DNA of 64,000 nt from a virus. The notes under the pieces were generated by a model. That model was not told the origin of the DNA. It worked only from the letters and a program-made list of their open reading frames with translations, and did not search any database. The stretch lies in the IMG/VR virus record IMGVR_UViG_3300032286_000719, positions 48,820 to 112,819 of that record, one strand, 5' to 3'. Each line of letters opens with the position of its first letter. Positions within the stretch are counted from its first letter, which is position 1. A program made the translations under genes and the position numbers. Of the stretch, positions 8,452 through 61,117 are shown one piece after another.

Positions 8452-9477
8452 ATGGCAATACCATCAAGAGGAATAGGCTGGAGTACAGAAGATAACCTGT
8501 TATGGCAAATCTCTAAGCAATTAGAAAGACTAACGCAAGTTACAGGTAATAGTGTAAGTGGATCTCAAACACTTGCACAAACACTTGTTATTGGAAACAA
8601 TACAGGTGGAACTGATATACTATTAAATAATGATGATGCAATACAGTTAGAGAATAATTCTTCAATTAAAAAAGGAACTTATGACTTTGGTCAAAATGGT
8701 GGTGTTTCTCGTATATGTGGAGTCGATTATGAGGATATGTGGCAAGGTGGAATTAGACACGTTTTTGATAACAATGGATATATTAGAAATTCAACAAATG
8801 GTTTTAATACAGTTCCTAATACCAGTTTTGATGATACTTTAAGATTTAAAGTAGGTTCATTTTGGACTTTAGATGATGGTACTACTTACAAATGTATTGA
8901 CAATAGTACAGGAGCAGCTGTTTGGGAATTATATTCTTCACCACCTAAATATAAAGTGTATACAGCTTTATTAACACAGAGTGGTTCTAGTAATCCTCAA
9001 GATATTAACTCAGGAAATTTAACTGTAGGTGTAACATATTTCATCAATAATAATGTGTTAGGAGATTTTACAAATGTAGGAGCACCTAATAATGATAATG
9101 GTACATATTTTGTGGCAACAGGTACAACTCCAGCTGACTGGGGTATAAATATTAGTGGTGATACACTTACTTTTGATACAGCAACTCCAATAGTAAGAAT
9201 ATTAGAAAACACTATTGGTGATGTTTGGTTTGTATATTTAGACCTTGGGAATTACGCTTGTTATTGCTCAACGCCTTTATTTACTGTTAATAAAACAACA
9301 TTAAATAGTGAGATATTTTATAGTAACACTAACGACCAAATGTGCTCTTTAATTAGTAGCACAGGTGATTTTGACAGCCAATCTGTAGTTTTTTCATCTG
9401 TAAGAAGTTCAGGGTCAATACAATTTGAAAATAACGCATTGCAAGATACATTTTTTGAAATAAGAGTGTACAACTAA
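8452..9477 (+). CDS. virion decoration/fibre protein, shared-leader paralog 1
   Basis: N-terminal MAIPSRGIGWSTEDNLLWQISKQLERL; C-terminal 'YKVYTALLTQSG...LENTIG...EIRVYN' domain. Confidence 0.6.
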   Translation: MAIPSRGIGWSTEDNLLWQISKQLERLTQVTGNSVSGSQTLAQTLVIGNNTGGTDILLNNDDAIQLENNSSIKKGTYDFGQNGGVSRICGVDYEDMWQGGIRHVFDNNGYIRNSTNGFNTVPNTSFDDTLRFKVGSFWTLDDGTTYKCIDNSTGAAVWELYSSPPKYKVYTALLTQSGSSNPQDINSGNLTVGVTYFINNNVLGDFTNVGAPNNDNGTYFVATGTTPADWGINISGDTLTFDTATPIVRILENTIGDVWFVYLDLGNYACYCSTPLFTVNKTTLNSEIFYSNTNDQMCSLISSTGDFDSQSVVFSSVRSSGSIQFENNALQDTFFEIRVYN

Positions 9478-9495
9478 TAATATATAAAGAAAGAA

Positions 9496-10482
9496 ATGGC
9501 TATACCTAGTAGACAAATTGGTTGGAGCACACAATCTAACTTACTATGGCAGATATCTAAACAATTAGAACGTCTGACATGTGTAACTGCTGGTGGATGT
9601 GGCACAACTACTACTACAACTACTACTACTACAGGATGTTTAAATTGTGTAGAAGAACCTGTTGTTATTGGCACACAAACTTGGGACAAATGTAATTTAA
9701 ATGTAACTACTTATGCTAATGGAGATCCTATCCCAGAGGTAACAGATCCTGCTGTATGGACTAGTTTAACTACTGGAGCTTGGTGCTATTATGACAATGA
9801 CCCTCTAAATGAACCTATATATGGAAAACTCTACAACTGGTATGCATTAACAGATCCAAGAGGATTAGCTCCTGTAGGTAAAAGTATTCCAACAGATGAA
9901 GACTGGACCACTTTAACCACTTTCTTAGGAGGAGAATCAATTGCTGGAGGATCAATGAAAGAGACAGGACTATGTCATTGGGCAGATCCAAACACAGATG
10001 CTACAAACAGTAGTGGTTTTACAGCTCTTGGAGGAGGTTATAGAGACATTGATAGCACATTCTTAGAGTTTAATACCTATGGTGTATGGTGGGCTTCGAC
10101 AGAGATAAATTCAGGTGCTTATCTTCGAATTTTATTTTACAGCGATGGTAGTGTAAACAGATCAGGTAGTGATAAAAGGCATGGTTTCTCAGTTAGATGC
10201 TTAGTAGATAATACAACTACTACTACTACAACATTAAATCCTTTAATTAATACAAATTATACATTTATTAATTGTATAGCACCTTGTGGTGGTGGATGTA
10301 GAAGACCTCTTTCTTATTATGATGTTTGGATGATACAATCATGTATAGACTCTTGGCCATTGATAGGATGTGCAGTTTGGTTAGATGAAGCAGGAACAAC
10401 ACCATTTCCTTCAGGTAATTATAATAATAATGACATTAATTGTATTGAAATAACAGATGGTGTGGTAACCAATATTGTTTAA
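9496..10482 (+). CDS. shared-leader paralog 2 with Thr tracts, Fib_succ_major (FISUMP, lectin-like) domain and Cys-rich C-domain
   Basis: 'IGTQTW..NL', 'YGKLYNWYA', 'IPTDEDW', 'NSSGFTALGGGYR', 'GFSVRCL' are typical FISUMP motifs. Confidence 0.75.
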   Translation: MAIPSRQIGWSTQSNLLWQISKQLERLTCVTAGGCGTTTTTTTTTTGCLNCVEEPVVIGTQTWDKCNLNVTTYANGDPIPEVTDPAVWTSLTTGAWCYYDNDPLNEPIYGKLYNWYALTDPRGLAPVGKSIPTDEDWTTLTTFLGGESIAGGSMKETGLCHWADPNTDATNSSGFTALGGGYRDIDSTFLEFNTYGVWWASTEINSGAYLRILFYSDGSVNRSGSDKRHGFSVRCLVDNTTTTTTTLNPLINTNYTFINCIAPCGGGCRRPLSYYDVWMIQSCIDSWPLIGCAVWLDEAGTTPFPSGNYNNNDINCIEITDGVVTNIV

Positions 10483-10495
10483 AATAAAAATAAAA

Positions 10496-11371
10496 ATGAG
10501 TATAGCACCAAGACAAATAGGACAGAGTACAAGAAGTAATCTTCTTTGGCAAATATCTAAACAACTTGAAAGATTGATATGTGTTAGAGCTGGTGGATGT
10601 AATACTACAACTACATCAACAACAACCATAACACCTACCACCACCACTACTACCACTCCTGCTCCAACATCAGAATGGTATGAAGTAACTGAGTGTTATA
10701 CTACAAATGTTATTTATAGTGTTGAGTATCCTGTAGGAACATTTCAATTAAATGATGGTGTTACTTATTATCTTGGTGGTGATTGGACAATAACAAATAT
10801 ATTTTATACAGATCCAGGAGGTGCACAATTTGGTTTAAGTAACATATTTCAGATAGGATGTCCAACTACAACCACAACAACAACAACAATTACACCATGT
10901 ATTGAAGTGTCATTTTTAGCTATTACTGATTGTCCTGATTTAGGATATGCTACAGTGGAATACACAGATTGTAATGGAATATATCAAACAGGTAATGTTG
11001 TTGCTGGAAGTGGAAATTCTTTAAAAGTTTGTACATTAACTGCAGGTATAACTCCTGCATTTACATGTGGAGATGGAGAGATTACCTATGGATCAGCTTG
11101 TACTACTACAACTACTACTACAGCTGCACCTGTAGTTAATAGCACAAATAAATTTGTTAATTGTGCAGGACCATGTTTTGAATCTGAATGTGTACCACTT
11201 AATTATTTTAATGTATGGATGACACAAGCATGTATAAATTCATGGCCAACTATTGGTTGTGAAGTATGGTTGGATTCTGAAGGAACAATACCATTTCCTA
11301 GTGGAGCTTATAATAATGGTGAGGGTGGTTGTGTATATATAGAAAATGGCACAATAACTGATATTCCTTAA
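10496..11371 (+). CDS. shared-leader paralog 3 with three Thr tracts and Cys-rich domains
   Basis: Start reassigned to ATG 10496 (MSIAPRQIGQSTRSNLLWQISKQLERL) by homology to the paralogs; C-domain homologous to that of 9496..10482. Confidence 0.7.
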   Translation: MSIAPRQIGQSTRSNLLWQISKQLERLICVRAGGCNTTTTSTTTITPTTTTTTTPAPTSEWYEVTECYTTNVIYSVEYPVGTFQLNDGVTYYLGGDWTITNIFYTDPGGAQFGLSNIFQIGCPTTTTTTTTITPCIEVSFLAITDCPDLGYATVEYTDCNGIYQTGNVVAGSGNSLKVCTLTAGITPAFTCGDGEITYGSACTTTTTTTAAPVVNSTNKFVNCAGPCFESECVPLNYFNVWMTQACINSWPTIGCEVWLDSEGTIPFPSGAYNNGEGGCVYIENGTITDIP

Positions 11372-11404
11372 TATAAAAAAATAAAAATTAAAACCAACTA
11401 CATT

Positions 11405-12421
11405 ATGAAAGAATTAAAATTTATCCAAGCTTGTCCTAGTGACATTTATTACACATGGCAAGTGAATCTATGGATGGAGAGTCTTAAAGAAATAGGACAC
11501 TCTGACAAAGCAATCAATCTAATCTTTACACCTAAAGGAAGAGAGAATAGAGATAAGTGGAAACAGATAGAAGATCTATATCCAGAAGCAGAGTTTCATT
11601 ATTACGAAGATGAGGATAATCTGAATCGATTGATTGGAATATATATTCCTGTATTAAGACCATACGTTCTTTGGAAACATTTTAAGAAACATCCAGAACT
11701 AAGTGATTGTGCTATATTCTATTGTGATTCAGATATTCTTTTTATGAAAGATTTTAATGTGGATCAGTTTTTGGAAGATGATGTTAACTACTTATCAGAT
11801 ACAAACAGTTATATTAACGCTAAGTATTTTGATAGCAAGGTGCATCAAGTGTTACCAGAGAAACTGGAAGAATATAAAGGAAGAGATGTTCTTGCTGAGA
11901 TAGCAAGTGTTGTTGGAATAAGCAGAGAAATAGCTGAAGCTAATAATGATCATTCAGGAGGAGCTCAATATCTATTAAAGAATGTAGATGCTGACTTCTG
12001 GAGTAAGGTGATGAATGATTGTATTCTTATAAGAACCTATTTACAACAAGTGAATAGAGAATTCTTTAAAGATGAGAACAGTGGATTCCAAAGTTGGTGT
12101 GCAGACATGTGGGCTGTTCTTTGGAACATATGGGTTAGAGAAAAAGAAACAAGAGTGGTGCCTGAACTAGCATTTGCTTGGGCAACAGATCCTATCACAA
12201 AACTTGATACCCACACCATCTTTCATAATGCAGGCATAGTGTCTGAGACAGGAAATGGTTATCCAGCTTTCTATAAAGGTAAATATCACATGGGAACAGA
12301 TCCAACAAAAGATCCTAACCTAGATATGATTCTTGAGAACGAACAATCAAAAAAATATTGCACGTGGTTTTATGCCACTAAACTAAACGAAATCAAAAAC
12401 AAATATAACCTAGACTATTAA
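11405..12421 (+). CDS. GT-A fold glycosyltransferase resembling peptide O-glycosyltransferases (HPAT/SERGT1; GT95/GT96-like)
   Basis: 'YYTWQ', 'LRPY', DxD in 'YCDSDILF', 'GGAQY', 'WCADMWA', 'IFHNAG' occur in the same order as the motifs I recall for plant HPAT/SERGT1 (YFDWQ, NKP, DxD, WxxEMY, H). Confidence 0.6.
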   Translation: MKELKFIQACPSDIYYTWQVNLWMESLKEIGHSDKAINLIFTPKGRENRDKWKQIEDLYPEAEFHYYEDEDNLNRLIGIYIPVLRPYVLWKHFKKHPELSDCAIFYCDSDILFMKDFNVDQFLEDDVNYLSDTNSYINAKYFDSKVHQVLPEKLEEYKGRDVLAEIASVVGISREIAEANNDHSGGAQYLLKNVDADFWSKVMNDCILIRTYLQQVNREFFKDENSGFQSWCADMWAVLWNIWVREKETRVVPELAFAWATDPITKLDTHTIFHNAGIVSETGNGYPAFYKGKYHMGTDPTKDPNLDMILENEQSKKYCTWFYATKLNEIKNKYNLDY

Positions 12422-12437
12422 CCCTAAATTTTAAACA

Positions 12438-12671
12438 ATGGGAAGCATTAATTCAAGACCTTTAAAGGCTTTTGTTAGATTCGATGGATCTGGCAGAATA
12501 GTTGCAGGAAGCTTAATCCTTAGAAAAAATAAGCCCAAGGTGGGTAAGTGGAAAGAAATACAAGCATATGAGTGCTGTTTTCTTACTACCACTACAACCA
12601 CTACAGTAGCTCCTACTACTACTAGCACAACAACTGCAAGAGCTACAACAACAACTACAACAACAAGATAA
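12438..12671 (+). CDS. small protein with mucin-like Thr tail, paralog A
   Basis: 'LKAFVRFDGSGRI...ECC' followed by a tail that is almost all Thr. Confidence 0.75.
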   Translation: MGSINSRPLKAFVRFDGSGRIVAGSLILRKNKPKVGKWKEIQAYECCFLTTTTTTTVAPTTTSTTTARATTTTTTTR

Positions 12672-12673
12672 TC

Positions 12674-12916
12674 ATGGCTAGAAATAACAATAACAAGCTT
12701 AAAGCTTTTGTACGTTTTGATGGATCAGGACGTATTATACCAAGTAGTTTAATTGTACAAGCATTTAAACCTGCTGTAGGTAACTATGTAGAGATAGATG
12801 CTAAAGAGTGTTGCAACTATACAACCACTACAACATCAACAACTGCTGCCCCTACTACAACTACTACAACTACTGTAGCACCAACCACCACTAGTACGAC
12901 AACACCAGCTCCTTAA
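12674..12916 (+). CDS. small protein with mucin-like Thr tail, paralog B
   Basis: Same 'LKAFVRFDGSGRI...ECC' head plus a T/A/P tail. Confidence 0.75.
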   Translation: MARNNNNKLKAFVRFDGSGRIIPSSLIVQAFKPAVGNYVEIDAKECCNYTTTTTSTTAAPTTTTTTTVAPTTTSTTTPAP

Positions 12917-12918
12917 TT

Positions 12919-13335
12919 ATGGCAATGAAATCTATATTTCCAGATGACATGATGAAATCATCAGCATCTGAAGGCTTAACGTTAGAAAGCATAGCTGCAA
13001 AGCTTACTTACTTCCATGAGCAATTACATTTGACTCATTGGCAAACAACTAGTTATGCAGAGCATCAAGCCACAGGAGCATTGTATGATTATGTACATGA
13101 TTTCAAAGATGGATTGGTTGAAAAGATTATGGGATATACAGGTAAAAGACCTGCTCCATATAAAATAGAACCTCTTACAAACTGTACAGCTGGTGAGTGC
13201 GTTAATAATCTTTTATCTTTTGCATCAGCTTTAAAGATGTATGGTGAGAAGAATGGTTATCATGATGTATGTAATCTAGCAGATTCATTATCAGGAGAAG
13301 CAGCTAAAACTAAATACCTGTTAACATTGTCATAA
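12919..13335 (+). CDS. ferritin/Dps-like protein (DUF5856-like)
   Basis: 'QLHLTHWQT..YAEHQA.G.LYD...D...E' four-helix ferroxidase pattern; C-terminal 'KYLLTL'. Confidence 0.75.
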   Translation: MAMKSIFPDDMMKSSASEGLTLESIAAKLTYFHEQLHLTHWQTTSYAEHQATGALYDYVHDFKDGLVEKIMGYTGKRPAPYKIEPLTNCTAGECVNNLLSFASALKMYGEKNGYHDVCNLADSLSGEAAKTKYLLTLS

Positions 13336-13622
13336 TGGATATAAACAGAAAACATTTTCCTAAGGTGATGCAAGATAACGATGAAGTCTTTCTTGCACAC
13401 TTAGAAGGTGTTATCTCTTCTGTTGATGAACTATGTAGTCTTGAGATCACAAAGAATCCTGATAACTATAGATTCAGAATAGCAGCAAGTCATCCAATGT
13501 ACAACAATATGCTTATAGAAGAAATTCTTAAGTTCTGTAACATGTTCAAGATAAGAGTGGACATGAGCAAATCAATTAAAACAACAAGCGTTATTACGTT
13601 TGAAATAAACTTAAAAGAATAA
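13335..13622 (+). CDS. hypothetical protein
   Basis: Coupled ORF in the operon. Confidence 0.5.
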   Translation: MDINRKHFPKVMQDNDEVFLAHLEGVISSVDELCSLEITKNPDNYRFRIAASHPMYNNMLIEEILKFCNMFKIRVDMSKSIKTTSVITFEINLKE

Positions 13623-13624
13623 TT

Positions 13625-14197
13625 ATGCCTACATTTATTAAACCTACCCTTTGGGAAAAAAGAACTAATCCTGCACAAGGATATAAAGGAGAATTAAACC
13701 TTGATCAATTTGTAGAAAATAAAATACCTGCTCCTACGAGTCTGTATTCTGCTACTTTTTTTGATACCACATTACAAACTAATGGTGGAGCAACAACAGC
13801 TAATCAAGTTTTAATTAATTCAACACAATCTGCTAATGGATTTACATTAGGACCTAATAATAGAGTAAATGTTACTAATGCAGGAATTTATTATATAGAT
13901 CTTAGTCTTCAACTTGCATTTACAGGAGGTGCATCAAATTTTAATGTGACAGTATGGTATACAATAAATGATGCAATTGTACCTAACTCTGCTTTTACAT
14001 TTACAACATCATCTCAACAAAATGATCAAACTTTAGCAAGGATAGCAGATACAATAGCATTAACAGCTGGACAATATCTTAAGTTCTATTGGTGGGCTCC
14101 AGCAACTGGTATGCGTTTGTTACCAACTGCTGCAGGAACTAATCCAACAAGACCATTATCACCATCAGTAAACTTTTCTATATTTAATGTTGGATAA
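13625..14197 (+). CDS. C1q/TNF-like trimeric beta-domain virion protein
   Basis: 'VTNAGIYYIDLSLQL', 'VWYTIN...VPNS', 'LTAGQYL' jelly-roll pattern. Confidence 0.55.
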   Translation: MPTFIKPTLWEKRTNPAQGYKGELNLDQFVENKIPAPTSLYSATFFDTTLQTNGGATTANQVLINSTQSANGFTLGPNNRVNVTNAGIYYIDLSLQLAFTGGASNFNVTVWYTINDAIVPNSAFTFTTSSQQNDQTLARIADTIALTAGQYLKFYWWAPATGMRLLPTAAGTNPTRPLSPSVNFSIFNVG

Positions 14198-14246
14198 TTA
14201 AAAAACATTATATACTTTTACTGTTAATTTTAAAACCAATTAAACT

Positions 14247-14501
14247 ATGGCACAGTATGATCCTGCAAAAAGGTACACATGGACTCCTGAAGACAAATTC
14301 ACGTTAACAGGACAACAGTTTGGATTAATCCTAAACACAGTTAGATCTTATTTATCATCAGAAGAAGCAGCACGTTTCCAATTGATGGTTCAAACTAATC
14401 AAGTGATTGAAGAGTTAATGATCCAAGGTGTGGAAGCTGACATCATTAAAGAAGTGATAGAAGAAGCTCCTATAGAAGAAGTTTCTTCTAAAGATCTTTA
14501 A
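14247..14501 (+). CDS. hypothetical protein
   Basis: A-rich leader, ATG start, plausible composition. Confidence 0.5.
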   Translation: MAQYDPAKRYTWTPEDKFTLTGQQFGLILNTVRSYLSSEEAARFQLMVQTNQVIEELMIQGVEADIIKEVIEEAPIEEVSSKDL

Positions 14502-14558
14502 AACAACGTAGCTGCTGGGTGAAGAATAGCAGCTGTTTTCAAACAAAAGCACTTCTCT

Positions 14559-14759
14559 ATGAGAATATACGAACCAAAGAATAGAATAGATGTTATAACG
14601 CCTAAGGGAGAAGGTATTATCTGGCTTGTTACAGAATTTGGAACAGAGACAGACACCATCTATACAATTATAATAAACACTACAGGTGAGCTGTGGCAAT
14701 ACACTCACAAAGATATAATCGTTAAACCCAATATAACATTTAAACGCTATGGCAAATAA
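14559..14759 (+). CDS. hypothetical protein
   Basis: 'TPKGEG..W.V..FG.E', 'TGELW' small beta protein. Confidence 0.5.
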   Translation: MRIYEPKNRIDVITPKGEGIIWLVTEFGTETDTIYTIIINTTGELWQYTHKDIIVKPNITFKRYGK

Positions 14760-14931
14760 AACAAAAGGTGGAAGTCTATCTGGACTTAAAGCATCTAACA
14801 AAAGAGTTGGTCCTGTAGATCCTAAAGGAGCATTCACAAATGTGCAAAAGAATACATTAGCTGGTGCTACAAGTAAAGCTAAACTTGTTAAAAATAAACA
14901 ACTTGGTGCTACCAAGATGAAGAAGAAATAA
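14749..14931 (+). CDS. small basic protein
   Basis: Lys-rich, coupled to neighbours. Confidence 0.6.
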   Translation: MANKTKGGSLSGLKASNKRVGPVDPKGAFTNVQKNTLAGATSKAKLVKNKQLGATKMKKK

Positions 14932-14934
14932 GTC

Positions 14935-15345
14935 ATGAAAGCTATTAAGAAAGCAGTTAATGGTACTACTACCAAAAAAACTACTCTTGATCCTAAGAGT
15001 AGAGAGCTTATTGTTAAACAATTTAAAGAGAATCAAATAAAAAAAGATTCTACTTATGAGGCTAATACAAAAAGTAATTTAGAAAAAAGTATAAAAGATC
15101 TTGCATTAAAAGCTCAACAGAAGCAATTAGAAGAAAATAGAAAAGCTAAATTACCTAGACAGAAAAATGGTGGTTCTGTAGCAAAAGCTAAAGATGGTAA
15201 GTGGATGCAGAAAGCTGCAGCTTCTATTAAACGTAGAGGAACTGCTGGTAAATGTACACCAATCACTAAACCTGGTTGTACAGGCAAAGCTAAAGCTCTT
15301 GCAAAAACATTCAAAAAAATTGCTAAATCTAATAAGAAGAAATAA
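14935..15345 (+). CDS. Lys-rich basic protein with KKAxxG/KNG motifs
   Basis: Composition; C-terminal 'KWMQKA...ALAKTFKKIAK' module. Confidence 0.65.
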   Translation: MKAIKKAVNGTTTKKTTLDPKSRELIVKQFKENQIKKDSTYEANTKSNLEKSIKDLALKAQQKQLEENRKAKLPRQKNGGSVAKAKDGKWMQKAAASIKRRGTAGKCTPITKPGCTGKAKALAKTFKKIAKSNKKK

Positions 15346-16163
15346 TGGCTAAGATAACAAAAGTACCTAATGGTCCTCTTATTAAGAAGAAAGGCCCATT
15401 TAAAGGAAGTACATTAAAGACTGGTGGTAGGATAAAGAAAGCTATAAATGGTACAACCACTACGCAAACTACTACTCGACCAATGACTAGAAGAGATAGT
15501 CTAGTAGCAAACATAAAAGAACAAAATAGACTAAGACAAAATCTTACAGATTTTAGAAACAAAGTTGGTAGTAGAAAACTAACACCTGATGAAGTTATAG
15601 AAAAAAATAAGCTTAACACTTTATTATCAGACTTTGGTACAAAACAAAGAGTAAAATCTACAGGACTAACAGAGCAGCAACTTGCTAAAAATGATTCTAT
15701 ATATACAGAACAGCAACGTAAGAAAAAAAGTGAAGAAGATGACAGTGGTCAACTAAGAGGTATGGGTAATGATAAACCAGGATGCTCTGGATCACAAGGG
15801 GCAAGTGAGAGAAGAGTTAAAAGAGAAGCCAGAAGAAAAAATGGTGGTCCTGTAAAGAAAGCTCTATTAGGTGCAATCATGGGAATGGCTGGAGGAAAAA
15901 ATAATCCTATATATAAAAAGACTACTGCACTTCGTGGTAAATTAGGTAGTGCTGCTCTTGGAATTCCTGGTTTAAAACCAATTGTAAAAAATGGTTCTAA
16001 AATAAAAAAAGCTAAAGCTGGTGCAATGATCAAACGTGCTGATGGTTCTATGTCTAAGAGAGGACTTTGGGATAACATCAGAGCTAATAAAGGATCTGGT
16101 AAGAAGCCTACAAAACAAATGTTAGTGCAAGAGAAGAAAATCAAAGCTAAAACTAAGAAATAA
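15345..16163 (+). CDS. Lys-rich basic modular protein
   Basis: Three K(T/N)GxxxKKAxxG junctions; 'GLWDNIRA' module. Confidence 0.65.
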   Translation: MAKITKVPNGPLIKKKGPFKGSTLKTGGRIKKAINGTTTTQTTTRPMTRRDSLVANIKEQNRLRQNLTDFRNKVGSRKLTPDEVIEKNKLNTLLSDFGTKQRVKSTGLTEQQLAKNDSIYTEQQRKKKSEEDDSGQLRGMGNDKPGCSGSQGASERRVKREARRKNGGPVKKALLGAIMGMAGGKNNPIYKKTTALRGKLGSAALGIPGLKPIVKNGSKIKKAKAGAMIKRADGSMSKRGLWDNIRANKGSGKKPTKQMLVQEKKIKAKTKK

Positions 16164-16441
16164 TGGCAACACCAGCATGGCAAAGAAAAGAAGGAAAGAA
16201 TCCTTCTGGTGGACTAAATGCTAAAGGCGTGGCTTCATATAGAAAAGCTAACCCTGGAAGCAAACTTAAAACAGCTGTTACAACAAAACCTTCTAAGCTT
16301 AAAGCTGGAAGTAAGGCTGCAGGAAGACGTAAGTCATTTTGTAGTAGAATGTCAGGTATGAAAAAGAAACTCACATCTGCTAAGACAGCAAATGATCCTA
16401 ACTCAAGAATCAATAAATCTCTACGTAAGTGGAATTGTTAA
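16163..16441 (+). CDS. basic phage protein, DUF6321-like
   Basis: 'AWQRKEGKNPSGGLNAKG.ASY', 'RRKSFCSRMSG', 'DPNSRINKSLRKWNC'. Confidence 0.75.
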   Translation: MATPAWQRKEGKNPSGGLNAKGVASYRKANPGSKLKTAVTTKPSKLKAGSKAAGRRKSFCSRMSGMKKKLTSAKTANDPNSRINKSLRKWNC

Positions 16442-16461
16442 ACCCTATAATAATATAAATC

Positions 16462-17166
16462 ATGGCAACAATTAAAAAGGCAAATACTGGTAAGTTAATC
16501 AAAGGTGCAATAAATGCTGTAACTTCTTCTAAAAAAGTAACTATACCTTCAGGACTGAAAAAATCAATAAAAAAATCTCAAAGTGGTCCAATAAAGATTA
16601 CTCCATATTCTTCAGAAGCTGAAAGAATAGCTGCTGGTGGTCCAACTAATTTACAAAAATATAAAACTGTAAATAGATTTGATCCAGACTATCAAAAACC
16701 ATATAAGCCAAAGAAACAACCTAAGGTTGATAAGTATGGTTTTGATACTAGACCAGATAGAAATGGTGGTGCACATAAAGCTAAAAATGGTAAATCATTT
16801 CCTGATCTTAACAAAGATGGAAAGGTTACTAGAGCAGACATCCTTAAAGGACGTGGTGTTATAGCTAAGAATGGTAAACCTATTAAGAAAGCTTTCTTAG
16901 GAGCTCTAGCACCACTAGCTATGAAAGCTCTACCTATGTTAGGTGGAATGCTTGGTGGTAAAGGAAAAGAAGGAGGTGGAGGAGGAATAGGTGGAATGCT
17001 TGGTGGATTACTAGGAGGAAAGAATGGCAAAACTGTAAAGAAATCTAAATCTGGCTCTACTATTAAAAAAACTGGTATGCATAAAATGCCTAATGGATCA
17101 ATGATGAAAAACTCAAAGATGAAAATGGGTGGATCTATGAAAAAATGCAAATATGGCTGCAAGTAA
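16462..17166 (+). CDS. Lys/Gly-rich basic modular protein with an EF-hand-like loop
   Basis: 'FPDLNKDGKVTRADIL' DxNxDG loop; repeated KNG/KKAxxG junctions; Gly-rich hydrophobic stretch. Confidence 0.65.
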   Translation: MATIKKANTGKLIKGAINAVTSSKKVTIPSGLKKSIKKSQSGPIKITPYSSEAERIAAGGPTNLQKYKTVNRFDPDYQKPYKPKKQPKVDKYGFDTRPDRNGGAHKAKNGKSFPDLNKDGKVTRADILKGRGVIAKNGKPIKKAFLGALAPLAMKALPMLGGMLGGKGKEGGGGGIGGMLGGLLGGKNGKTVKKSKSGSTIKKTGMHKMPNGSMMKNSKMKMGGSMKKCKYGCK

Positions 17167-17332
17167 ATCAATGACAGCTGGTAAAGCTAAGAAATCTGGA
17201 GCACCAAGAATGGCTCCAAAGGTGACTATTCCTAAGAAGGACAAACCCTTCTCACAAAATAAATCTATGGATGATAAGGTGAGAAGAACGTCTGCTCAGC
17301 AACCAATGAAGAAGAAAAGTTTATCAAAATAA
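17153..17332 (+). CDS. 59-aa basic protein (MAASKSMTAGKAKKSG...)
   Basis: Translated by hand; ends right before the terminator. Confidence 0.6.
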   Translation: MAASKSMTAGKAKKSGAPRMAPKVTIPKKDKPFSQNKSMDDKVRRTSAQQPMKKKSLSK

Positions 17333-17334
17333 TA

Positions 17335-17362
17335 AAGCCTCCTTGATTGGAGGCTTTTTTTT
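17335..17362. terminator. bidirectional intrinsic terminator at the convergence of + and - blocks
   Basis: AAAGCCTCC-TTGATT-GGAGGCTTT followed by a T run. Confidence 0.85.
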
Positions 17363-17912
17363 ATTTAACTATAATAAGAAGTTTGTTGTGATGTGTCTGA
17401 TAGAATTGTTTACATGGATAGTTGAGAGCTTTAATCTCTGCTATCATCTTGTGTTCATCTAACTGTGCAGCATGTAGATCTTCTATGATGTATATACCAC
17501 CTTCTTTTAGATATGGATATAACGTTTTGAAGCTTGTAATTATGTGTTCACCATAATGTGATCCATCATCAACAATGATATCAAAGTCTCCTCCATAAGT
17601 CTTAACACATTCTTCTAGATCCTTAACACTGTTCTGATCTCCAATGAACACTTGTACATTCTCTTTCTCAAACTGTTTGGCCTCTGAATTAATATCATAC
17701 CCTATAAGTTCTATATCAGGGAAATATTCATTCCACATCTCAAGAGATGCTCCAGGAAACCTAGGATCTGCTACACCTATCTCTAACATCTTAACATGTT
17801 CTTTAGATATTTCATCTAATAATTCATGATAGAGAACAGTGTAATGATGGCCATAATCCATGGTGCCTTTGTCTGTGCCTATTCTATTTGCTATTTCTGT
17901 TAATCTGTTCAT
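17361..17912 (-). CDS. class I SAM-dependent (sugar) O-methyltransferase, MycE/TylE-like
   Basis: 'GTDK', 'HHY', 'LEIGV', 'GDQ', 'FDIIVDDGSH', 'GGIYIIEDL'. Confidence 0.8.
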   Translation of the reverse strand: MNRLTEIANRIGTDKGTMDYGHHYTVLYHELLDEISKEHVKMLEIGVADPRFPGASLEMWNEYFPDIELIGYDINSEAKQFEKENVQVFIGDQNSVKDLEECVKTYGGDFDIIVDDGSHYGEHIITSFKTLYPYLKEGGIYIIEDLHAAQLDEHKMIAEIKALNYPCKQFYQTHHNKLLIIVK

Positions 17913-18573
17913 AGTAATCGTTTTTAAAATGTGGATGGAGTTCTATTTCTCCTTTTGTATTATCTAACACTTTATCTGCATGATCTAATATCACTTGATT
18001 AGAATGTTCTCCAAGTCCTGATATATGGAATGTTCCCATTCCCCAACGATATAACATTGTGTTTTTTAGTTTAGATTCATATATTTTTCCACCTTTGTGG
18101 AATGTAATATCTGCATCTTCTCCATTACTTGTATCAGGCCATTTGATTCTATCTAAATAACCTTTAGTGTAAATGTTTCCATTGTTTATATTAGAGCTCT
18201 CTCTTTCATAAATATTATTTACAAAGAAATACATTCCTTCACTTCTATAGACATCATATCCAGGATTGGTCTGTATATCTATACTTGCATTCTTTAAAGC
18301 CCATGGAGCTAAGAGATCATCATCATCTAGTCTATAGATGTAGTCATACTTACACTGTTTGTATCCCCATTCAATCTTAGCAGCTATAGAAGGAAATCTC
18401 TCTTTATGATTGATAATCCTTACTTTAGGGTGATTATACACATAATCCACCTCAGCATTGTCATTTATGACGACCATTTCACATTCTGGTGGGAGTTCTT
18501 GTGCAAGAAATGATTGAATTGCTTCTTCTAACAAGTGATGTCTTTTATAGGTAAGAGTTAAAACTGATATCAT
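17884..18573 (-). CDS. glycosyltransferase family 2
   Basis: 'ISVLTLTYKR..LLEEAIQSFLAQ', 'VVIND', 'LDDDD', 'GED'. Confidence 0.85.
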   Translation of the reverse strand: MISVLTLTYKRHHLLEEAIQSFLAQELPPECEMVVINDNAEVDYVYNHPKVRIINHKERFPSIAAKIEWGYKQCKYDYIYRLDDDDLLAPWALKNASIDIQTNPGYDVYRSEGMYFFVNNIYERESSNINNGNIYTKGYLDRIKWPDTSNGEDADITFHKGGKIYESKLKNTMLYRWGMGTFHISGLGEHSNQVILDHADKVLDNTKGEIELHPHFKNDYYEQINRNSK

Positions 18574-19337
18574 ATTGGTTGTATTAATCCATTATTAAAA
18601 TAAGTTGGTAGTATAATCCATCCTTTGCAGTACATATCTGCCCATGATGATGGTCCTTCAGGTCCAAACCATGTCTCTGGTGCAACAACAATCTTTCCAG
18701 GTTGTCTAGATAGATAAGCTGCCCACCAACTAAACGATGAGTTAGATATAACAAAGTGATGACACATACTCATGATCCACAATTGTTCATGCACTTTCAA
18801 TCCTTCTAGATACATTGCATTAGGTATGTTCAAGTGTTCTTTACACCATGGAATATCATCACTAGCAATGATATATTGATTAGAAGGAACTAATGTTAAT
18901 GCCTTGTGTATGTATTCTGGTGAGACTGTAGGATGATAATTAGGGTAGTGGAGATAATCTCCTTTACGAACATTGATCACTGTCACCTCTGTATTAAAGA
19001 TGACAGGAATCTCTGTACGTATTTTATCTATAAATTCTTTTGGAGGAGAGAATAAAGATTTAACTGCTTCGCTATACTTCTCAAAATATCTTTCACTTTG
19101 ATAGTATCCACCATATACAGTTGCTTTATTATCTTTAACCTCATTAGGATGATCTATATATAAATCTAGTTTTCTAAATATATTATCTACAAAGTCACCC
19201 ATATGCCCCACTTGTTTGGCAGGAACAATAAGTTGTCTATTTTCATCTAAAGCTCTAGCGTAAGCATTAGCTATCATGAATAGATTATTACCTAGTCTTC
19301 CTCCCAAAGAGGGCATTATGAAATCTTTGTTTATCAT
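18570..19337 (-). CDS. glycosyltransferase family 11 (alpha-1,2-fucosyltransferase-like)
   Basis: 'GRLGNNLF', 'GYYQSERYF', 'NVRKGDY', 'SDDIPWCK', 'SNSSFSWWAAYL'. Confidence 0.9.
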   Translation of the reverse strand: MINKDFIMPSLGGRLGNNLFMIANAYARALDENRQLIVPAKQVGHMGDFVDNIFRKLDLYIDHPNEVKDNKATVYGGYYQSERYFEKYSEAVKSLFSPPKEFIDKIRTEIPVIFNTEVTVINVRKGDYLHYPNYHPTVSPEYIHKALTLVPSNQYIIASDDIPWCKEHLNIPNAMYLEGLKVHEQLWIMSMCHHFVISNSSFSWWAAYLSRQPGKIVVAPETWFGPEGPSSWADMYCKGWIILPTYFNNGLIQPI

Positions 19338-19627
19338 TACCAGATGTGAACAATATCAAATATAGAAACTAACAAAACATCTTCTGTAGCTGATAAAGGA
19401 ATTACAAAAGTTTTGTCTCTCAACGCTGATGGATCTACTAACACTTCACAACCAACAACAAGATCTGGATCTGTAATAGCTGTTCCTACACTATGAACTT
19501 TTAATCTGTTCATTTTATTAAGCAATGCTTTTTGTAAAGATTCTTTTGTATTATCATCTACAATCACTTTGCTCTCTTCTTTCTTTGGCATCTCTAAGTA
19601 GATGCGATTTCCTAATAACTTTGCCAT
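19337..19627 (-). CDS. GroES-like co-chaperonin
   Basis: 'LLGNRIYLE', 'VHSVG', 'VGCEVLV', ~96 aa. Confidence 0.6.
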   Translation of the reverse strand: MAKLLGNRIYLEMPKKEESKVIVDDNTKESLQKALLNKMNRLKVHSVGTAITDPDLVVGCEVLVDPSALRDKTFVIPLSATEDVLLVSIFDIVHIW

Positions 19628-19902
19628 TATTTTAATTCAAATAGGTTAATAAATCTTTTTGCATCCTCTGCATTCAATGTGATCTCTGATTGAACAGTCT
19701 CACGAATATTTTTGTATCCCTTCATCTTATTGGTTTTAAGATCAATGTCAGGTTGTTGTGTAACTCTCTCATTGAAATCATCTAGTATGACAATAAGGCC
19801 TGCCTCATCGTTCTCTAATGTTCTAATCACCTTGTTGATGTTTAAAGAAGCTGTGTACTCCTTCTCGCCAATAATAGCTGTGTAAAAAAATTGGTTTTTC
19901 AT
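19627..19902 (-). CDS. hypothetical protein
   Basis: Coupled ORF. Confidence 0.5.
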   Translation of the reverse strand: MKNQFFYTAIIGEKEYTASLNINKVIRTLENDEAGLIVILDDFNERVTQQPDIDLKTNKMKGYKNIRETVQSEITLNAEDAKRFINLFELK

Positions 19903-19913
19903 ATTTTAATTGT

Positions 19914-20096
19914 TTAAACGCTTACTACTAAATTCCAACATACATCTACAGCAGGAGGAAAAGTTTCTCCTTTTGTTAGAGCAATAAACTCTTTACCACT
20001 TCTGTATATACCACTCACAGGAGCTTTTTTTCCTGTAGTTCCTATAACATCTTCGCCAGTTGCTTCTAACAAAGACAATAAAATCTTTTTAATCAT
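19914..20096 (-). CDS. YjzC-like small protein
   Basis: 'TGKKAPVSGIY...KGETFPP...W'. Confidence 0.6.
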   Translation of the reverse strand: MIKKILLSLLEATGEDVIGTTGKKAPVSGIYRSGKEFIALTKGETFPPAVDVCWNLVVSV

Positions 20097-58531: not shown

Positions 58532-61117
58532 ATGGCAATAATTAGATATACAAAAGATGCTACCATCAGGTACGCATATTTAAACATCTTCCCTGATCAG
58601 TTCAAAACTGAAAAGGAAAAACAAGATGAGAGTTGGATTAAGAACACAATGGACTATTTTTCCAACAAAGCATATGCTGAGTATGTAAAGAATAGAGATA
58701 CATTTGTTAAAAACTACGATCTTATGAAAGGAATCTTACGTATGGAAGATTTCTATCAAGAACCAGAGGTGAGAAGCTTTACAGATGTTCTTACAGGAGA
58801 TCTAGAACTTCCTGCTTATGTAAAGATGTATTCTATTGTTACCACTCCTGTTAATGAGTTAGTGGGAGAAATCTCTAAACGTCCTGATACATTTAGAGTG
58901 AAAGCTTTTGATGATGACAGTCAAGCTGAAGAACTACAGTTTAAAACAGATACGTTACAAGAATATGTAATAGGTCAAGTTAAACAACAGTTTGCACAAA
59001 AAGCTGCTATGCGAGGGGAAGAGATTGATGAGGAGCAATTACAGCAAATGACTATGGAACAGGTTAAGGATCAGTTAGATAGCTATACATCTATTGCTGA
59101 GAAATGGGCTAACCACATTCTTACATGTCAGAAAGCTGAGTTTAACTTAAAAGAAAAATCAGAAGATGCATTCAGAGACATGCTAATCTCTGCTAGAGAA
59201 TTTTACCATATATATGAAGACAACTCAAAACTTGGTTTTAACATTGAAGTGGCCAACCCAAAGAACACTTGGTTTCTTACTACTCCTGATAGAAAGTGGA
59301 TATCAGATCCCACTGGTAGAGCTCAAGGAGCCTATGCTGCTGGTACAGTACAAGTTATGGAGCTTTCAGAGATCATTGAAAGCATACCAGATCTTACGAA
59401 AGAGGAGATTGACCACTTACGCTCATCGCTCCAAGACTATGGGCTAATCAATGTACGTGAATCAAACTTAGGTAATCCAGATGCTATTCCTGGACAAGAC
59501 TCTGTAATGTATGATACATTTGACCCATTAGTGTTACAGACACGTATGATCATTGAATCAGAGATGAAAGAGAATAATGATGGACTTAAAGACTTCTTAG
59601 GGCTAACAAACAATGTTAGTTCATTTGGTTATAAGTATGTTGTTGTTAGATCATATTGGATCTCTAAAAGAAAGATAGGTAAATTGATCTATATAGATGA
59701 TATGGGTAATGAGCAATCTTTACTTGTTGATGAAACTTATAAATCAGGAACTATACCTACACAACAATCATTAGAATGGGGATGGGTTAATGAATGGTAT
59801 CAAGGTACTAAGATTGGACCAGACATCTATCACATCAAACCATTCAAGTTATTAAACTACTGTCCTATTATAGGAACAACATATGAGGTGAAGAATACAG
59901 AAGCAAAAAGCTTAGTAGATCTTATGAAACCTTTCCAAGTTTTGTATAATGTATGTATGAACCAATTGTACAAGCTTCTTGAAAAAGAAATGGGTAAAGT
60001 GCAATTGATGTCATTAAGACATGTTCCTATTCCTAAAGATGGAGATGCACAAGATGCTCTTGATATATGGGAAATGGAAGCACGTAACAGAGGTGTGGTA
60101 TTTGTTGATGACAGCCCAGAGAACTTAAAAGCTCCTAGCTCATTCAACCAATATACAGCTCTTGACCTTACACGTACGCAGGAGATACAATCTAGATACC
60201 AACTTGCTCAACAAGTGAAAGCTGAATGTTGGGAACTTGTAGGTATGTCAAGACAACGTATGGGATCTGTATCTGCATCAGAAAGTGCTACAGGAACTAA
60301 TACAGCAATGCAACAGAGTTACTCTCAAACAGAACCATTATTTATTGCACATGAATATGTAATGGGACAACTATATCAAGCTATTATAGATGCTGCATTG
60401 TATGTAGAGAGTTCTAAACCTCAGTCTACGCTTTCATATATCACTTCTGAAGGAGAATCTGCATTCGTACAAGTGAATGGATCAGATCTTAAATTTCGTG
60501 ACTTAAAAGTGTTCTTAACTAATAGACCAGAAGATCAACAAATGTTTAATGAGCTTAGACAACTTTCTCAAGCTATTATTCAGAATGGTGGCACACTTTA
60601 TGATGTAGTGGAACTATATAGTTCTAAATCTCAAAGAGAACTTAAGAAAGCATTCAAAGATCTTAGAGACAGACAAGTTGCTCTGCAAGAACAACAACAA
60701 CAACTTGCTCAACAACAGCAACAAGCTCAACAAGAACAAGCTCAAGCTACATTACAACAAGCTGCTCAACTTGCTGCAGAACAACAAGCTAATGATAACT
60801 ATCAAAAAGAACTTGATAGAATATCTAAAGAGAAGATTGCTATTATACAAGCTACAGGATTTGGTAATGTAGAATCAGAAGATGTTAATGCTAATGCTGT
60901 TCCTGATGTAATGGAAGTCAGTAAGTTAAACATGGAACAAGAGAAAGTTACCAAAGATTATGGAATGGAGATGGCTGATATTCAAGCTAAGAATAAACAA
61001 GCTGCTGATAAAATGTCCATAGAAAAGGAGAAATTACAAGTAGCTAGAGAGAATATGGCAAACGATCTTGCAGTGGCAAAAGAGAATGCTAAGGGAAGAA
61101 ATAACAAAAAAAGTTAA
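58532..61117 (+). CDS. portal protein
   Basis: Follows TerL; 'SLVDLMKPFQ.LYN', 'G.SRQR.G'; Gln-rich C-terminal coiled coil. Confidence 0.85.
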   Translation: MAIIRYTKDATIRYAYLNIFPDQFKTEKEKQDESWIKNTMDYFSNKAYAEYVKNRDTFVKNYDLMKGILRMEDFYQEPEVRSFTDVLTGDLELPAYVKMYSIVTTPVNELVGEISKRPDTFRVKAFDDDSQAEELQFKTDTLQEYVIGQVKQQFAQKAAMRGEEIDEEQLQQMTMEQVKDQLDSYTSIAEKWANHILTCQKAEFNLKEKSEDAFRDMLISAREFYHIYEDNSKLGFNIEVANPKNTWFLTTPDRKWISDPTGRAQGAYAAGTVQVMELSEIIESIPDLTKEEIDHLRSSLQDYGLINVRESNLGNPDAIPGQDSVMYDTFDPLVLQTRMIIESEMKENNDGLKDFLGLTNNVSSFGYKYVVVRSYWISKRKIGKLIYIDDMGNEQSLLVDETYKSGTIPTQQSLEWGWVNEWYQGTKIGPDIYHIKPFKLLNYCPIIGTTYEVKNTEAKSLVDLMKPFQVLYNVCMNQLYKLLEKEMGKVQLMSLRHVPIPKDGDAQDALDIWEMEARNRGVVFVDDSPENLKAPSSFNQYTALDLTRTQEIQSRYQLAQQVKAECWELVGMSRQRMGSVSASESATGTNTAMQQSYSQTEPLFIAHEYVMGQLYQAIIDAALYVESSKPQSTLSYITSEGESAFVQVNGSDLKFRDLKVFLTNRPEDQQMFNELRQLSQAIIQNGGTLYDVVELYSSKSQRELKKAFKDLRDRQVALQEQQQQLAQQQQQAQQEQAQATLQQAAQLAAEQQANDNYQKELDRISKEKIAIIQATGFGNVESEDVNANAVPDVMEVSKLNMEQEKVTKDYGMEMADIQAKNKQAADKMSIEKEKLQVARENMANDLAVAKENAKGRNNKKS

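Follow-up and report, generated by a model that had tools for sequence, protein, structure and literature searches.

The closest described precedent for the locus analysed here is the virion glycosylation of the mycobacteriophages Che8, Corndog and Myrna (Freeman 2023, Cell Host Microbe, as cited in PMC11600133 and PMC12619734), in which, according to these citing papers, phage-encoded glycosyltransferases (GTs), acting with an O-methyltransferase, decorate the C-terminal ends of the capsid and tail-tube subunits of the phage that encodes them. Virus-encoded cytoplasmic machinery for the modification of its own capsid is likewise found in the chlorovirus PBCV-1 (A64R and its partners), but this is a eukaryotic giant virus whose glycans are N-linked and atypical, and it has no Thr-run tags. 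The plant and algal enzymes HPAT (GT95, PF23452) and SERGT1/SGT1 (GT96) put the first sugar on the hydroxyls of repetitive extended peptides, the role proposed below for ORF 11405, although they reside in Golgi membranes and modify Hyp or Ser. Glycogenin, the Skp1 alpha-galactosyltransferase (6mw8) and GlyE (5gvv) of the pneumococcal serine-rich-repeat adhesin pathway are retaining enzymes of the GT8 fold with cytoplasmic protein or glycoprotein acceptors. Mucin-type O-glycosylation by the GalNAc-transferases (GT27) provides, by analogy only, the concept of a bottle-brush built on dense Thr/Ser/Pro acceptor tracts, but it employs another enzyme family and takes place in the Golgi lumen.

The window, a stretch of 64,000 nucleotides from the circular 112.7-kb genome of a crAss-like phage, shares the GT2 and, plausibly, the Methyltransf_24/TylF class with the validated mycobacteriophage cassettes, which are made up of Methyltransf_24/TylF, GT2 and GT25 enzymes. 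The existence of these cassettes overturns the view of the initial annotation that no phage system of such kind had been described, though they involve other enzyme families and acceptor ends that are not poly-Thr: the capsid and tail proteins of Che8 and Corndog end in ...GS or ...DS. A profile of the 11405 family found nothing significant in Che8 and the first 50 kb of Corndog (best E 0.54), and pairwise BLASTP of the methyltransferase and GT2 of the window against Che8 gp108-110 and Corndog gp35-38 gave only E values of at least 0.05; on these two grounds the window enzymes are not orthologs of the mycobacteriophage proteins. The modified sites in the mycobacteriophages are in the capsid and tail tube, whereas the tracts in the window are in fibre or appendage proteins, and no Thr tract was found in the window's major capsid protein. 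Finally, the mycobacteriophage glycans have been measured, whereas our literature search found no paper reporting a glycan on any phage that carries the 11405 family.

Threonine-tract proteins encoded around ORF 11405

A six-frame scan of the window reveals ten Thr tracts, nine of which are located at 9604-12874 on both sides of ORF 11405; all of the in-frame tracts of the window fall within this interval, and the tenth, at 60691, is out of frame within the portal gene. The four tract-bearing genes that the initial annotation had placed around the GT (starting at 9496, 10496, 12438 and 12674) are all present as claimed, but the count is too low, as another eight + strand proteins with multiple Thr tracts are encoded in the remainder of the genome. 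In the genome as a whole, the pattern (ACN)5AC occurs at 50 sites, in every case on the sense strand, and the reversed-pattern control occurs once. Since the Thr codons of the tracts are a mixture of ACA, ACT and ACC, the tracts are not microsatellites. Units of exactly seven Thr make up most of the runs in this phage.

The gene at 8452..9477 (+ strand) encodes a fibre-type protein that has no Thr tract in its translation and carries an N-terminal 'LLWQISKQLERL' anchor module in common with the next two genes. The first candidate acceptor (9496..10482, + strand, 328 aa) is composed of the anchor module, a run of ten Thr (T10, 9604-9633), a Fib_succ_major domain (PF09603, E 1.6e-39), a T7 run (10213-10233) and a Cys-rich C-terminal domain, so that the two runs flank the Fib_succ_major domain. 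The second (10496..11371, + strand) has the same anchor and C-terminal domain and four T/P/A tracts, found at 10604-10672, 10862-10888 and 11102-11131. On the other side of ORF 11405 lie two small paralogous genes. The 77-aa protein at 12438..12671 (+ strand) has a conserved head of about 48 residues with an 'ECC' end, followed by the Thr-rich tail T7-VAP-TTTSTTT-ARA-T7; it is a tipless version of an anchor-stalk-tip family, and 76 of 80 related loci encode a homolog of it. The 80-aa protein at 12674..12916 (+ strand) likewise joins a conserved head, predicted to be a small three-stranded sheet (pLDDT ~78), to a tail predicted to be unstructured (TTTTTSTTAAP-T7-VAP-TTTSTTT-PAP).

Fold and family of ORF 11405

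ORF 11405 (11405..12421, + strand) is a GT-A glycosyltransferase with a DxD motif and a predicted fold resembling that of glycogenin and GT8. In its AlphaFold2 model (pLDDT 97, pTM 0.93), Asp108 and Asp110 directly follow the strand 103-107, and D108-S-D110 is invariant across 64 diverse homologs, as are His274 and Lys291. Structural comparison of the model gave 107 chains with a Z-score of at least 8, of which the highest-scoring ones are without exception GT-A enzymes, with alignments that span residues 1-338. The best solved folds are of the GT8 and GT24 types (Z ~14), including the Skp1 alpha-galactosyltransferase (Z 14.1), glycogenin (Z 14.1) and GlyE (Z 12.7); these three resemble 11405 over ~220-240 residues and likewise have a DxD motif, although with a sequence identity of only 9-11% and with ~80 extra residues. 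The GT-A domain of PBCV-1 A64R has a Z of 11.0, and the wall-polymer enzymes TarP and RmlT have a Z of ~9.5. Many of the GT8-fold relatives extend glycans and do not prime proteins, which is a counterpoint to an initiating role.

The likeness to GT8 is one of fold only, and membership in the family by sequence was rejected: PF01501 (Glyco_transf_8) had no match in the 11405 protein at E ≤ 0.1 or in the genome at E ≤ 10, where control genomes were matched. The designation as an HPAT/SERGT1-like enzyme was borne out with respect to the DxD-containing GT-A enzyme, but the HPAT/SERGT1 label is tentative, with weak and indirect signals behind it. PF23452 gave no match in the 11405 protein or in the genome, the genome search being uninformative because the controls were likewise blank, and only sub-threshold matches in three of the 64 relatives (best E 0.012); the positive signal comes only from language-model neighbours, among which 22 of 30 named clusters have PF23452. 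Among the structural matches there is no solved GT95 or GT96 structure.

By profile, 11405 is assigned to phrog_4417 (E 1e-55, with residues 4-321 aligned to positions 1-287 of the 293 in the profile), the function of which is given in PHROGs as unknown. This large family comprises 770 clusters at 50% identity, with members fused to Methyltransf_24, GT2, GT6 and DXD sugar-binding domains. In phage phiFL1A there is no recognisable GT besides the 11405-family enzyme, which fits an initiating role, and 11405 is proposed here to be an initiating peptide O-glycosyltransferase.

Linkage and covariation of the enzyme with threonine tracts

The association was followed in two independent sets of 80 viral loci each, with enzymes 65-95% identical (set A) or ~33% identical (set B, contigs of 5-299 kb) to 11405. 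ORFs with tracts of at least five Thr are present in 70 of the 80 loci in set A, in 59 of them within 300 bp of the enzyme gene, and in 69 of the 80 in set B, where 52 are adjacent; thus 86-88% of the loci have such ORFs, mostly adjoining the enzyme, and all of them (151/151 and 104/104, respectively) are on the enzyme strand. In set B, the 3 kb upstream of the enzyme contain tracts at a density of 14.7 per 10 kb, compared with 0.05-0.17 downstream. The upstream candidate acceptors in set B have no annotation and are candidate virion proteins only. Poly-Thr also adjoins the enzyme gene in the cultured phages Enterococcus phiFL1A, Lactococcus 1706, Lacticaseibacillus R9.1, Clostridium phiCTP1, Staphylococcus vB-SscS-F1, Arcanobacterium TPWB06, Lactobacillus Semele and Chryseobacterium MA9V-3, and in annotated phages the enzyme gene sits inside late structural operons. 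In the reverse direction, when 46 viral loci were chosen for having a genuine T7 ORF in frame, the enzyme was found within the short flanks fetched in only three, so Thr tracts often occur with no enzyme nearby and are perhaps simply linkers.

The two features also covary. Among 27 Enterococcus-type loci orthologous to the phiFL1A tail-tube protein, the protein has a poly-Thr tail in 12/12 loci with the enzyme and in 0/15 without it (Fisher p 5.8e-8, a statistic that ignores phylogeny), and the enzyme-plus and enzyme-minus loci are intermixed at tiers of 100%, 84% and 66% identity. The protein at the capsid position, encoded 2.4 kb away and with orthologs 75-100% identical, shows the same pattern (12/12 with the enzyme versus 0/13 without), which a single contiguous indel therefore cannot account for. 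Poly-Thr sites number 50 and 15 in whole genomes that encode the enzyme, and the enzyme-minus relatives Cellulophaga phi17:2 and Leptolyngbya Lbo-JY46 have none in their whole genomes. The presence of the GT gene thus tracks candidate acceptor tails on structural proteins, a trait expected of a virion glycosylation system of the mycobacteriophage type. With adjacency, strand and covariation in independent lineages all in agreement, the link between the 11405 family and Thr-tract genes, which the initial annotation had put forward for this genome, is strongly supported by these comparisons.

The downstream glycosyltransferase and methyltransferase genes

About 5 kb from 11405, a bidirectional intrinsic terminator (17334..17357; 9-bp stem with five GC pairs and T-runs on either side) divides the late + strand operon from a convergent - strand unit, at the end of which three further candidate sugar-modifying enzymes are encoded. 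The GT11-family, fucosyltransferase-type enzyme (18570..19337, - strand; PF01531 E 1.2e-25, 90.8 bits against a cut-off of 23.9; phrog_2644 E 2.7e-43) and the GT2-family enzyme, a candidate glycan extender (17884..18573, - strand; PF00535 E 7e-12, 46 bits against a cut-off of 23.3), are as initially annotated. The third protein (17361..17912, - strand; phrog_21658 E 1e-23) is a SAM-dependent methyltransferase, for which the earlier assignment as a sugar O-methyltransferase is plausible from sequence: against Methyltransf_24 it scores 25.1 bits, slightly short of the cut-off of 26.3, TylF and CmcI gave no match, and NCBIfam gave nothing useful. In 49 related loci, GT11 is present in three, the methyltransferase in 13 and a GT2 at this position in 39, often with ~30% identity. 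In the relatives this slot is invariably occupied by GT2 and sugar-type O-methyltransferase genes in some combination, and the counterparts of the window's methyltransferase there match RMNT_CmcI and FkbM.

Proposed mechanism and alternative explanations

Taken together, the data favour a model, to which we assign a probability of roughly 0.7, in which the phrog_4417 enzyme glycosylates the Thr runs in the proteins of the phage's own particle. Late in infection, before or during assembly, 11405, with its retaining-type GT-A fold like that of GT8, would act in the host cytoplasm and move a sugar from a nucleotide-sugar, the presumed donor, to the hydroxyls of the Thr runs. The acceptors would be the stalks between the N-terminal anchor module and the tip domain in about 12 fibre or appendage proteins, and the bare tails of the two small proteins encoded right after 11405. 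The GT2, GT11 and methyltransferase may lengthen and cap the chain as a strain-variable tailoring cassette, and the phage might benefit from stalks that are stiffer, protease-resistant or shielded.

It is improbable that the Thr tracts are instead ordinary unmodified linkers and tails, with 11405 acting on phage DNA or on a host surface polymer such as LPS, teichoic acid or capsule, which would block superinfection or keep progeny off debris. S/T-rich linkers are widespread among Bacteroidota-associated proteins, viral contigs commonly contain poly-Thr ORFs, most of which lack the enzyme within the fetched flanks, and wall-polymer enzymes are among the structural matches of 11405. Such an arrangement, however, leaves unexplained why the capsid-position and tail-tube genes gain or lose poly-Thr exactly with the enzyme, why the enzyme-minus relatives are devoid of poly-Thr sites and why the enzyme adjoins a Thr-tract gene on the same strand (in set B directly downstream of it) and in the late structural operons of annotated phages; for DNA as the target, no DNA hydroxymethylation genes were seen in a non-systematic look. 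We consider it equally doubtful that 11405 modifies virion proteins with the Thr run serving as a docking or recognition tag or a spacer, where the sugar would be added to other residues or to a host-primed glycan and the family would extend rather than start chains. The Skp1 alpha-galactosyltransferase, LgtC, GlyE and LARGE1, all extenders, are among the closest folds, and in the serine-rich-repeat pathway the GT8 enzymes act only after priming by GtfA/B. Yet glycogenin, an equally close fold, primes a protein hydroxyl, phiFL1A has no second recognisable GT, and we know of no cytoplasmic enzyme of these hosts that primes poly-Thr.

The extension and capping of the glycan, which the initial annotation had assigned to the downstream genes, is a tentative part of the model: the genes are present, but in a separate convergent unit. 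With a likelihood that falls somewhat short of even, the three genes (17361-19337) may be unrelated to 11405 and form a cassette of auxiliary or moron type, with host polysaccharides as the target of its enzymes in the course of infection. This would agree with their position behind the terminator, with the scarcity of GT11 and the methyltransferase in the relatives, with the lack of pairwise similarity to the Che8 and Corndog enzymes and with PHROGs, where the GT11 family is filed under 'moron, auxiliary metabolic gene and host takeover'. It is less easily reconciled with the fusions of 11405-family members to Methyltransf_24, GT2 and GT6 in other phages, with the enzyme classes of the validated mycobacteriophage cassettes and with the constant mix of GT2 and O-methyltransferase in the slot, which is what would be expected of a glycan-diversifying locus.

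Implications

Phage virion glycosylation as such is already known from the mycobacteriophages; what differs here is the enzyme family and the poly-Thr candidate acceptors. We give even odds to a broader reading, in which the phrog_4417 enzyme and an encoded poly-Thr tag constitute a self-contained, portable module for cytoplasmic O-glycosylation in hundreds of phage lineages, with the enzyme founding a new family of initiating peptide O-glycosyltransferases, T7 being the acceptor unit in this lineage and swappable GT2/methyltransferase cassettes diversifying the glycan. If true, the module would glycan-coat the capsids, tail tubes and fibres of phages, crAss-like ones among them, whose hosts are Bacillota, Actinomycetota and Bacteroidota.

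Covariation of the ORF 11405 enzyme with poly-threonine tails

The DxD glycosyltransferase encoded by ORF 11405 (11405-12421, + strand) is tightly linked to poly-Thr proteins in related phages. Among 80 viral loci of the window's enzyme clade (65-95% identity) and 80 loci of a clade that is ~33% identical, on contigs of 5-299 kb, an ORF with a tract of at least five threonines is found in 70/80 and 69/80, respectively, and several of the loci scored without such an ORF end just upstream of the enzyme gene. All of these tract ORFs lie on the strand of the enzyme (255/255 in both sets together), and in 59 and 52 loci, respectively, one is located within 300 bp of it. The ~33% identical clade has 14.7 tracts per 10 kb within 3 kb upstream of the enzyme compared to 0.05-0.17 downstream; the candidate acceptor proteins of this clade gave no match in PHROGs annotation. 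The co-occurrence of the enzyme with poly-Thr ORFs, suggested in the initial annotation as a check, is therefore evident when approached from the enzyme, but weak from the side of the T7 ORFs, as, in an arbitrary sample of 46 viral loci that have a genuine T7 ORF, only 3 contain the enzyme within the short flanks covered. The notion that poly-Thr tracts of phages generally depend on the 11405 family was accordingly rejected, and Thr tracts do not in general need it.

The enzyme family is present in cultured phages of Enterococcus, Lactococcus, Lactobacillus, Staphylococcus, Clostridium and Chryseobacterium, and also in crAss-like environmental phages. In phiFL1A, 1706, phiCTP1 and the Staphylococcus and Arcanobacterium phages the enzyme is encoded right after the tail-tube protein, and in Planchet and R9.1 after the capsid protein. 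Poly-Thr tails form the C-termini of both of these structural proteins in 1706, R9.1 and phiFL1A; in Planchet and SAC12B, only weaker Thr-rich repeats are seen. A literature search for glycosylation or poly-threonine in the carrier phages found nothing, nor did it reveal an experimental study of a carrier.

The covariation of enzyme and tail was followed in 27 loci with an ortholog of the phiFL1A tail-tube protein (65-100% identity), where the poly-Thr tail is found in 12/12 loci with the enzyme and 0/15 without it (Fisher p 5.8e-8, uncorrected for phylogeny). Loci with and without the enzyme are intermixed over the identity tiers, which points to several gains or losses. Since the Thr tail of the tail-tube protein adjoins the enzyme gene, a single indel removing both could produce the same pattern, and for this reason the capsid-position protein, encoded 2.4 kb away, was examined. 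The protein is orthologous in all loci (75-100% identity) and its core terminates at the same position everywhere, but beyond the core it carries poly-Thr in 12/12 loci with the enzyme and short non-Thr tails in 13/13 without it. The single-indel explanation is thus rejected, as the distant gene covaries too. On the scale of whole genomes, 50 poly-Thr sites are present in the window's genome and 15 in the Chryseobacterium phage MA9V-3, which both encode the enzyme, versus none in the relatives without it, Cellulophaga phi17:2 and Leptolyngbya Lbo-JY46. Taken from sequence comparison, the evidence for a pairing of the enzyme with poly-Thr in phages is strong.

Some peculiarities were observed in two of the cultured carriers, the Mammaliicoccus phage vB-SscS-F1 (locus L287, named as a Staphylococcus phage) and the 'Arcanobacterium' phage TPWB06 (L289). 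The major tail protein of the former is annotated as two pieces flanking a 296-aa ORF (L287 3773-5475), which suggests an intron or a homing-endonuclease insertion in the tail-tube gene. The capsid C-termini of the two phages are identical and the gene order is alike, an unexpected identity across host phyla, and one of the host assignments may be wrong. Both also have a short ORF consisting nearly entirely of Thr runs, which overlaps the end of the tail-tube gene or lies behind it (L289:5720-5926 and L287:5563-5925), and a programmed frameshift into this ORF might yield a longer Thr-rich tail-tube variant.

Thr-tract proteins of the phage genome

The phage genome is circular with a length of 112.7 kb and a 112-bp assembly overlap, and the window represents its second half. 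Its large terminase is closest to those of crAss-type phages of Cellulophaga, Flavobacterium and Bacteroides, and a giant 4564-aa protein together with several further very large proteins is likewise a crAss-like trait; no match to cultured phages was obtained with megablast for window positions 9000-20000. The late block on the + strand runs from the terminase, portal and capsid genes (from 56509, wrapping round the circle) through the fibre genes to 17332, and between it and a convergent unit on the - strand lies a strong bidirectional terminator (17334-17357).

The Thr-tract genes listed in the initial annotation were all found, with ORF translations in agreement, but the list was incomplete, as eight further + strand proteins outside 9604-12874 carry multiple Thr tracts in the rest of the genome, including a 1801-aa 'virion structural protein' (phrog_37948). 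A six-frame scan of the 64 kb revealed ten tracts, nine of which are located at 9604-12874 on both sides of ORF 11405 and the tenth out of frame within the portal gene. The whole genome has 50 poly-Thr-coding sites, every one on the sense strand, and no tract in the major capsid protein. The Thr codons within the tracts are mixed, which indicates that selection acts at the protein level. The run lengths in the genome are 20 x T7 versus 2 x T6 and 1 x T8, and T7 accounts for 164/334 Thr runs in the 80 related loci of this phage group, while the runs of the other enzyme clade show a smooth length distribution up to T31. A role of the T7 units as DNA recombination joints is ruled out, as 18 different DNA sequences account for the 20 units.

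The small Thr-tailed proteins 12438 and 12674, encoded 3′ of the enzyme gene, have a common head of ~48 residues with 12 invariant positions and a Cys-Cys pair at its end, which is predicted to form a small three-stranded sheet (pLDDT 67.5 for the modelled protein, moderate confidence). Behind the head come one to four T7-(A/V)AP units, their number differing among close relatives, and in several relatives the tail runs into a globular tip domain. Such proteins are present in 76/80 related loci and, as judged from their sequences, are a tipless version of the anchor-stalk-tip design of the larger fibre proteins. N-terminal modules recur among the Thr-tract proteins, with a 'GPFNLYS' start common to three (genome positions 9026, 10323 and 10945), and their reuse fits a combinatorial anchor-stalk-tip repertoire. 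Directly 3′ of the small Thr-tailed genes lies a DUF5856 protein (12919-13335, E 2.6e-13), kept in 68/80 related loci, and the late operon ends with five successive + strand ORFs (14749-17332) for very Lys/Gly-rich basic proteins of 59-272 aa, two of which contain short 'NGTTT' motifs; these could be internal or DNA-associated virion proteins.

Fold and family of the enzyme

ORF 11405 has no match in Pfam, NCBIfam or a PDB sequence-profile search, and it matches phrog_4417, a family with no assigned function, at E 1e-55. One search placed 2688 proteins in the family, another returned 770 clusters at 50% identity, and residues Y80, D108, D110, Y136, Q229, F257, H274 and K291 are invariant in an alignment of 64 diverse members. 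The AlphaFold2 model of 11405 is of high quality (pLDDT 97, pTM 0.93), and in a Foldseek comparison glycogenin ranked at the top. A second, independent aligner scored Skp1 alpha-galactosyltransferase, glycogenin and LgtC at Z ~14, the catalytic domain of UGGT at 13.5, GlyE from the serine-rich-repeat adhesin pathway at 12.7 and A64R, the PBCV-1 capsid-glycosylation enzyme, at 11.0. Because of these fold matches the modelled protein is assigned as a GT8-like GT-A enzyme, probably with a retaining mechanism. The initial annotation had described an HPAT/SERGT1-like GT-A enzyme, of which the GT-A fold holds but the HPAT/SERGT1 likeness is not established. With the HPAT model of Pfam there is no match to 11405 or elsewhere in the genome, likewise none in control genomes, and sub-threshold matches appear in only 3/64 relatives of 11405; the language-model neighbours of 11405 frequently bear an HPAT domain. 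The Pfam GT8 model also gave no match in the genome. Family members elsewhere are fused to Methyltransf_24, GT2, GT6 and DXD sugar-binding domains, which puts the family in a glycan-building pathway. In seven loci of the ~33% identical clade (L093, L108, L113, L115, L121, L129 and L131) the enzyme ORF is ~2 kb long, directly follows a protein with 7-13 Thr tracts, and is a predicted fusion to an additional domain.

Discussion

The phiFL1A genome has no second recognisable glycosyltransferase, and in such minimal systems the enzyme and the tag would therefore constitute the entire phage-encoded module, which favours a role of the 11405 family in initiating rather than extending the glycan. Extension and capping had initially been attributed to three - strand genes encoding a methyltransferase (17361-17912), GT2 (17884-18573) and GT11 (18570-19337). 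Pfam supports the assignments of GT2 and GT11, and 17361 encodes a SAM methyltransferase, but its sugar specificity is not established. Of 49 informative relatives, 39 have a GT2, in many cases with only ~30% identity, 13 the methyltransferase and 3 GT11. The slot is otherwise filled by different GT2 genes and by methyltransferases of the CmcI, FkbM or Methyltransf_24 type; it is a variable tailoring slot, not a fixed pathway. The cassette is also transcribed apart from the late + strand operon of 11405. The validated mycobacteriophage cassettes (Che8 gp108-110 and Corndog gp35-38) consist of Methyltransf_24/TylF, GT2 and GT25 enzymes, a make-up that renders a virion-glycan role of the window cassette plausible; pairwise comparison of its methyltransferase and GT2 with the Che8 and Corndog enzymes found no similarity and no orthology. 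On balance, participation of the cassette in virion glycosylation appears slightly favoured.

To our knowledge, phage virion glycosylation has been demonstrated for mycobacteriophages only. That system is the closest known one (Freeman 2023, as cited in PMC11600133 and PMC12619734), with phage-encoded enzymes and structural proteins with C-terminal acceptor tails in common, the tails being candidates here. The enzymes, however, differ, as the 11405 family was not found in Che8 or the searched Corndog region, and so do the acceptors, which end in GS or DS there and not in poly-Thr. Glycosylation of mycobacteriophage virions is reported to lessen the response of neutralising antibodies (Freeman 2023, cited in PMC11600133). 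If the 11405 family acts as the comparative evidence indicates, sugar-coated virions would be common, given its 770 clusters, which would bear on the contacts of phage particles with hosts, mucus and immune systems, on unassigned cryo-EM density and anomalous masses of structural proteins, and on the annotation of the large 'hypothetical' family phrog_4417.
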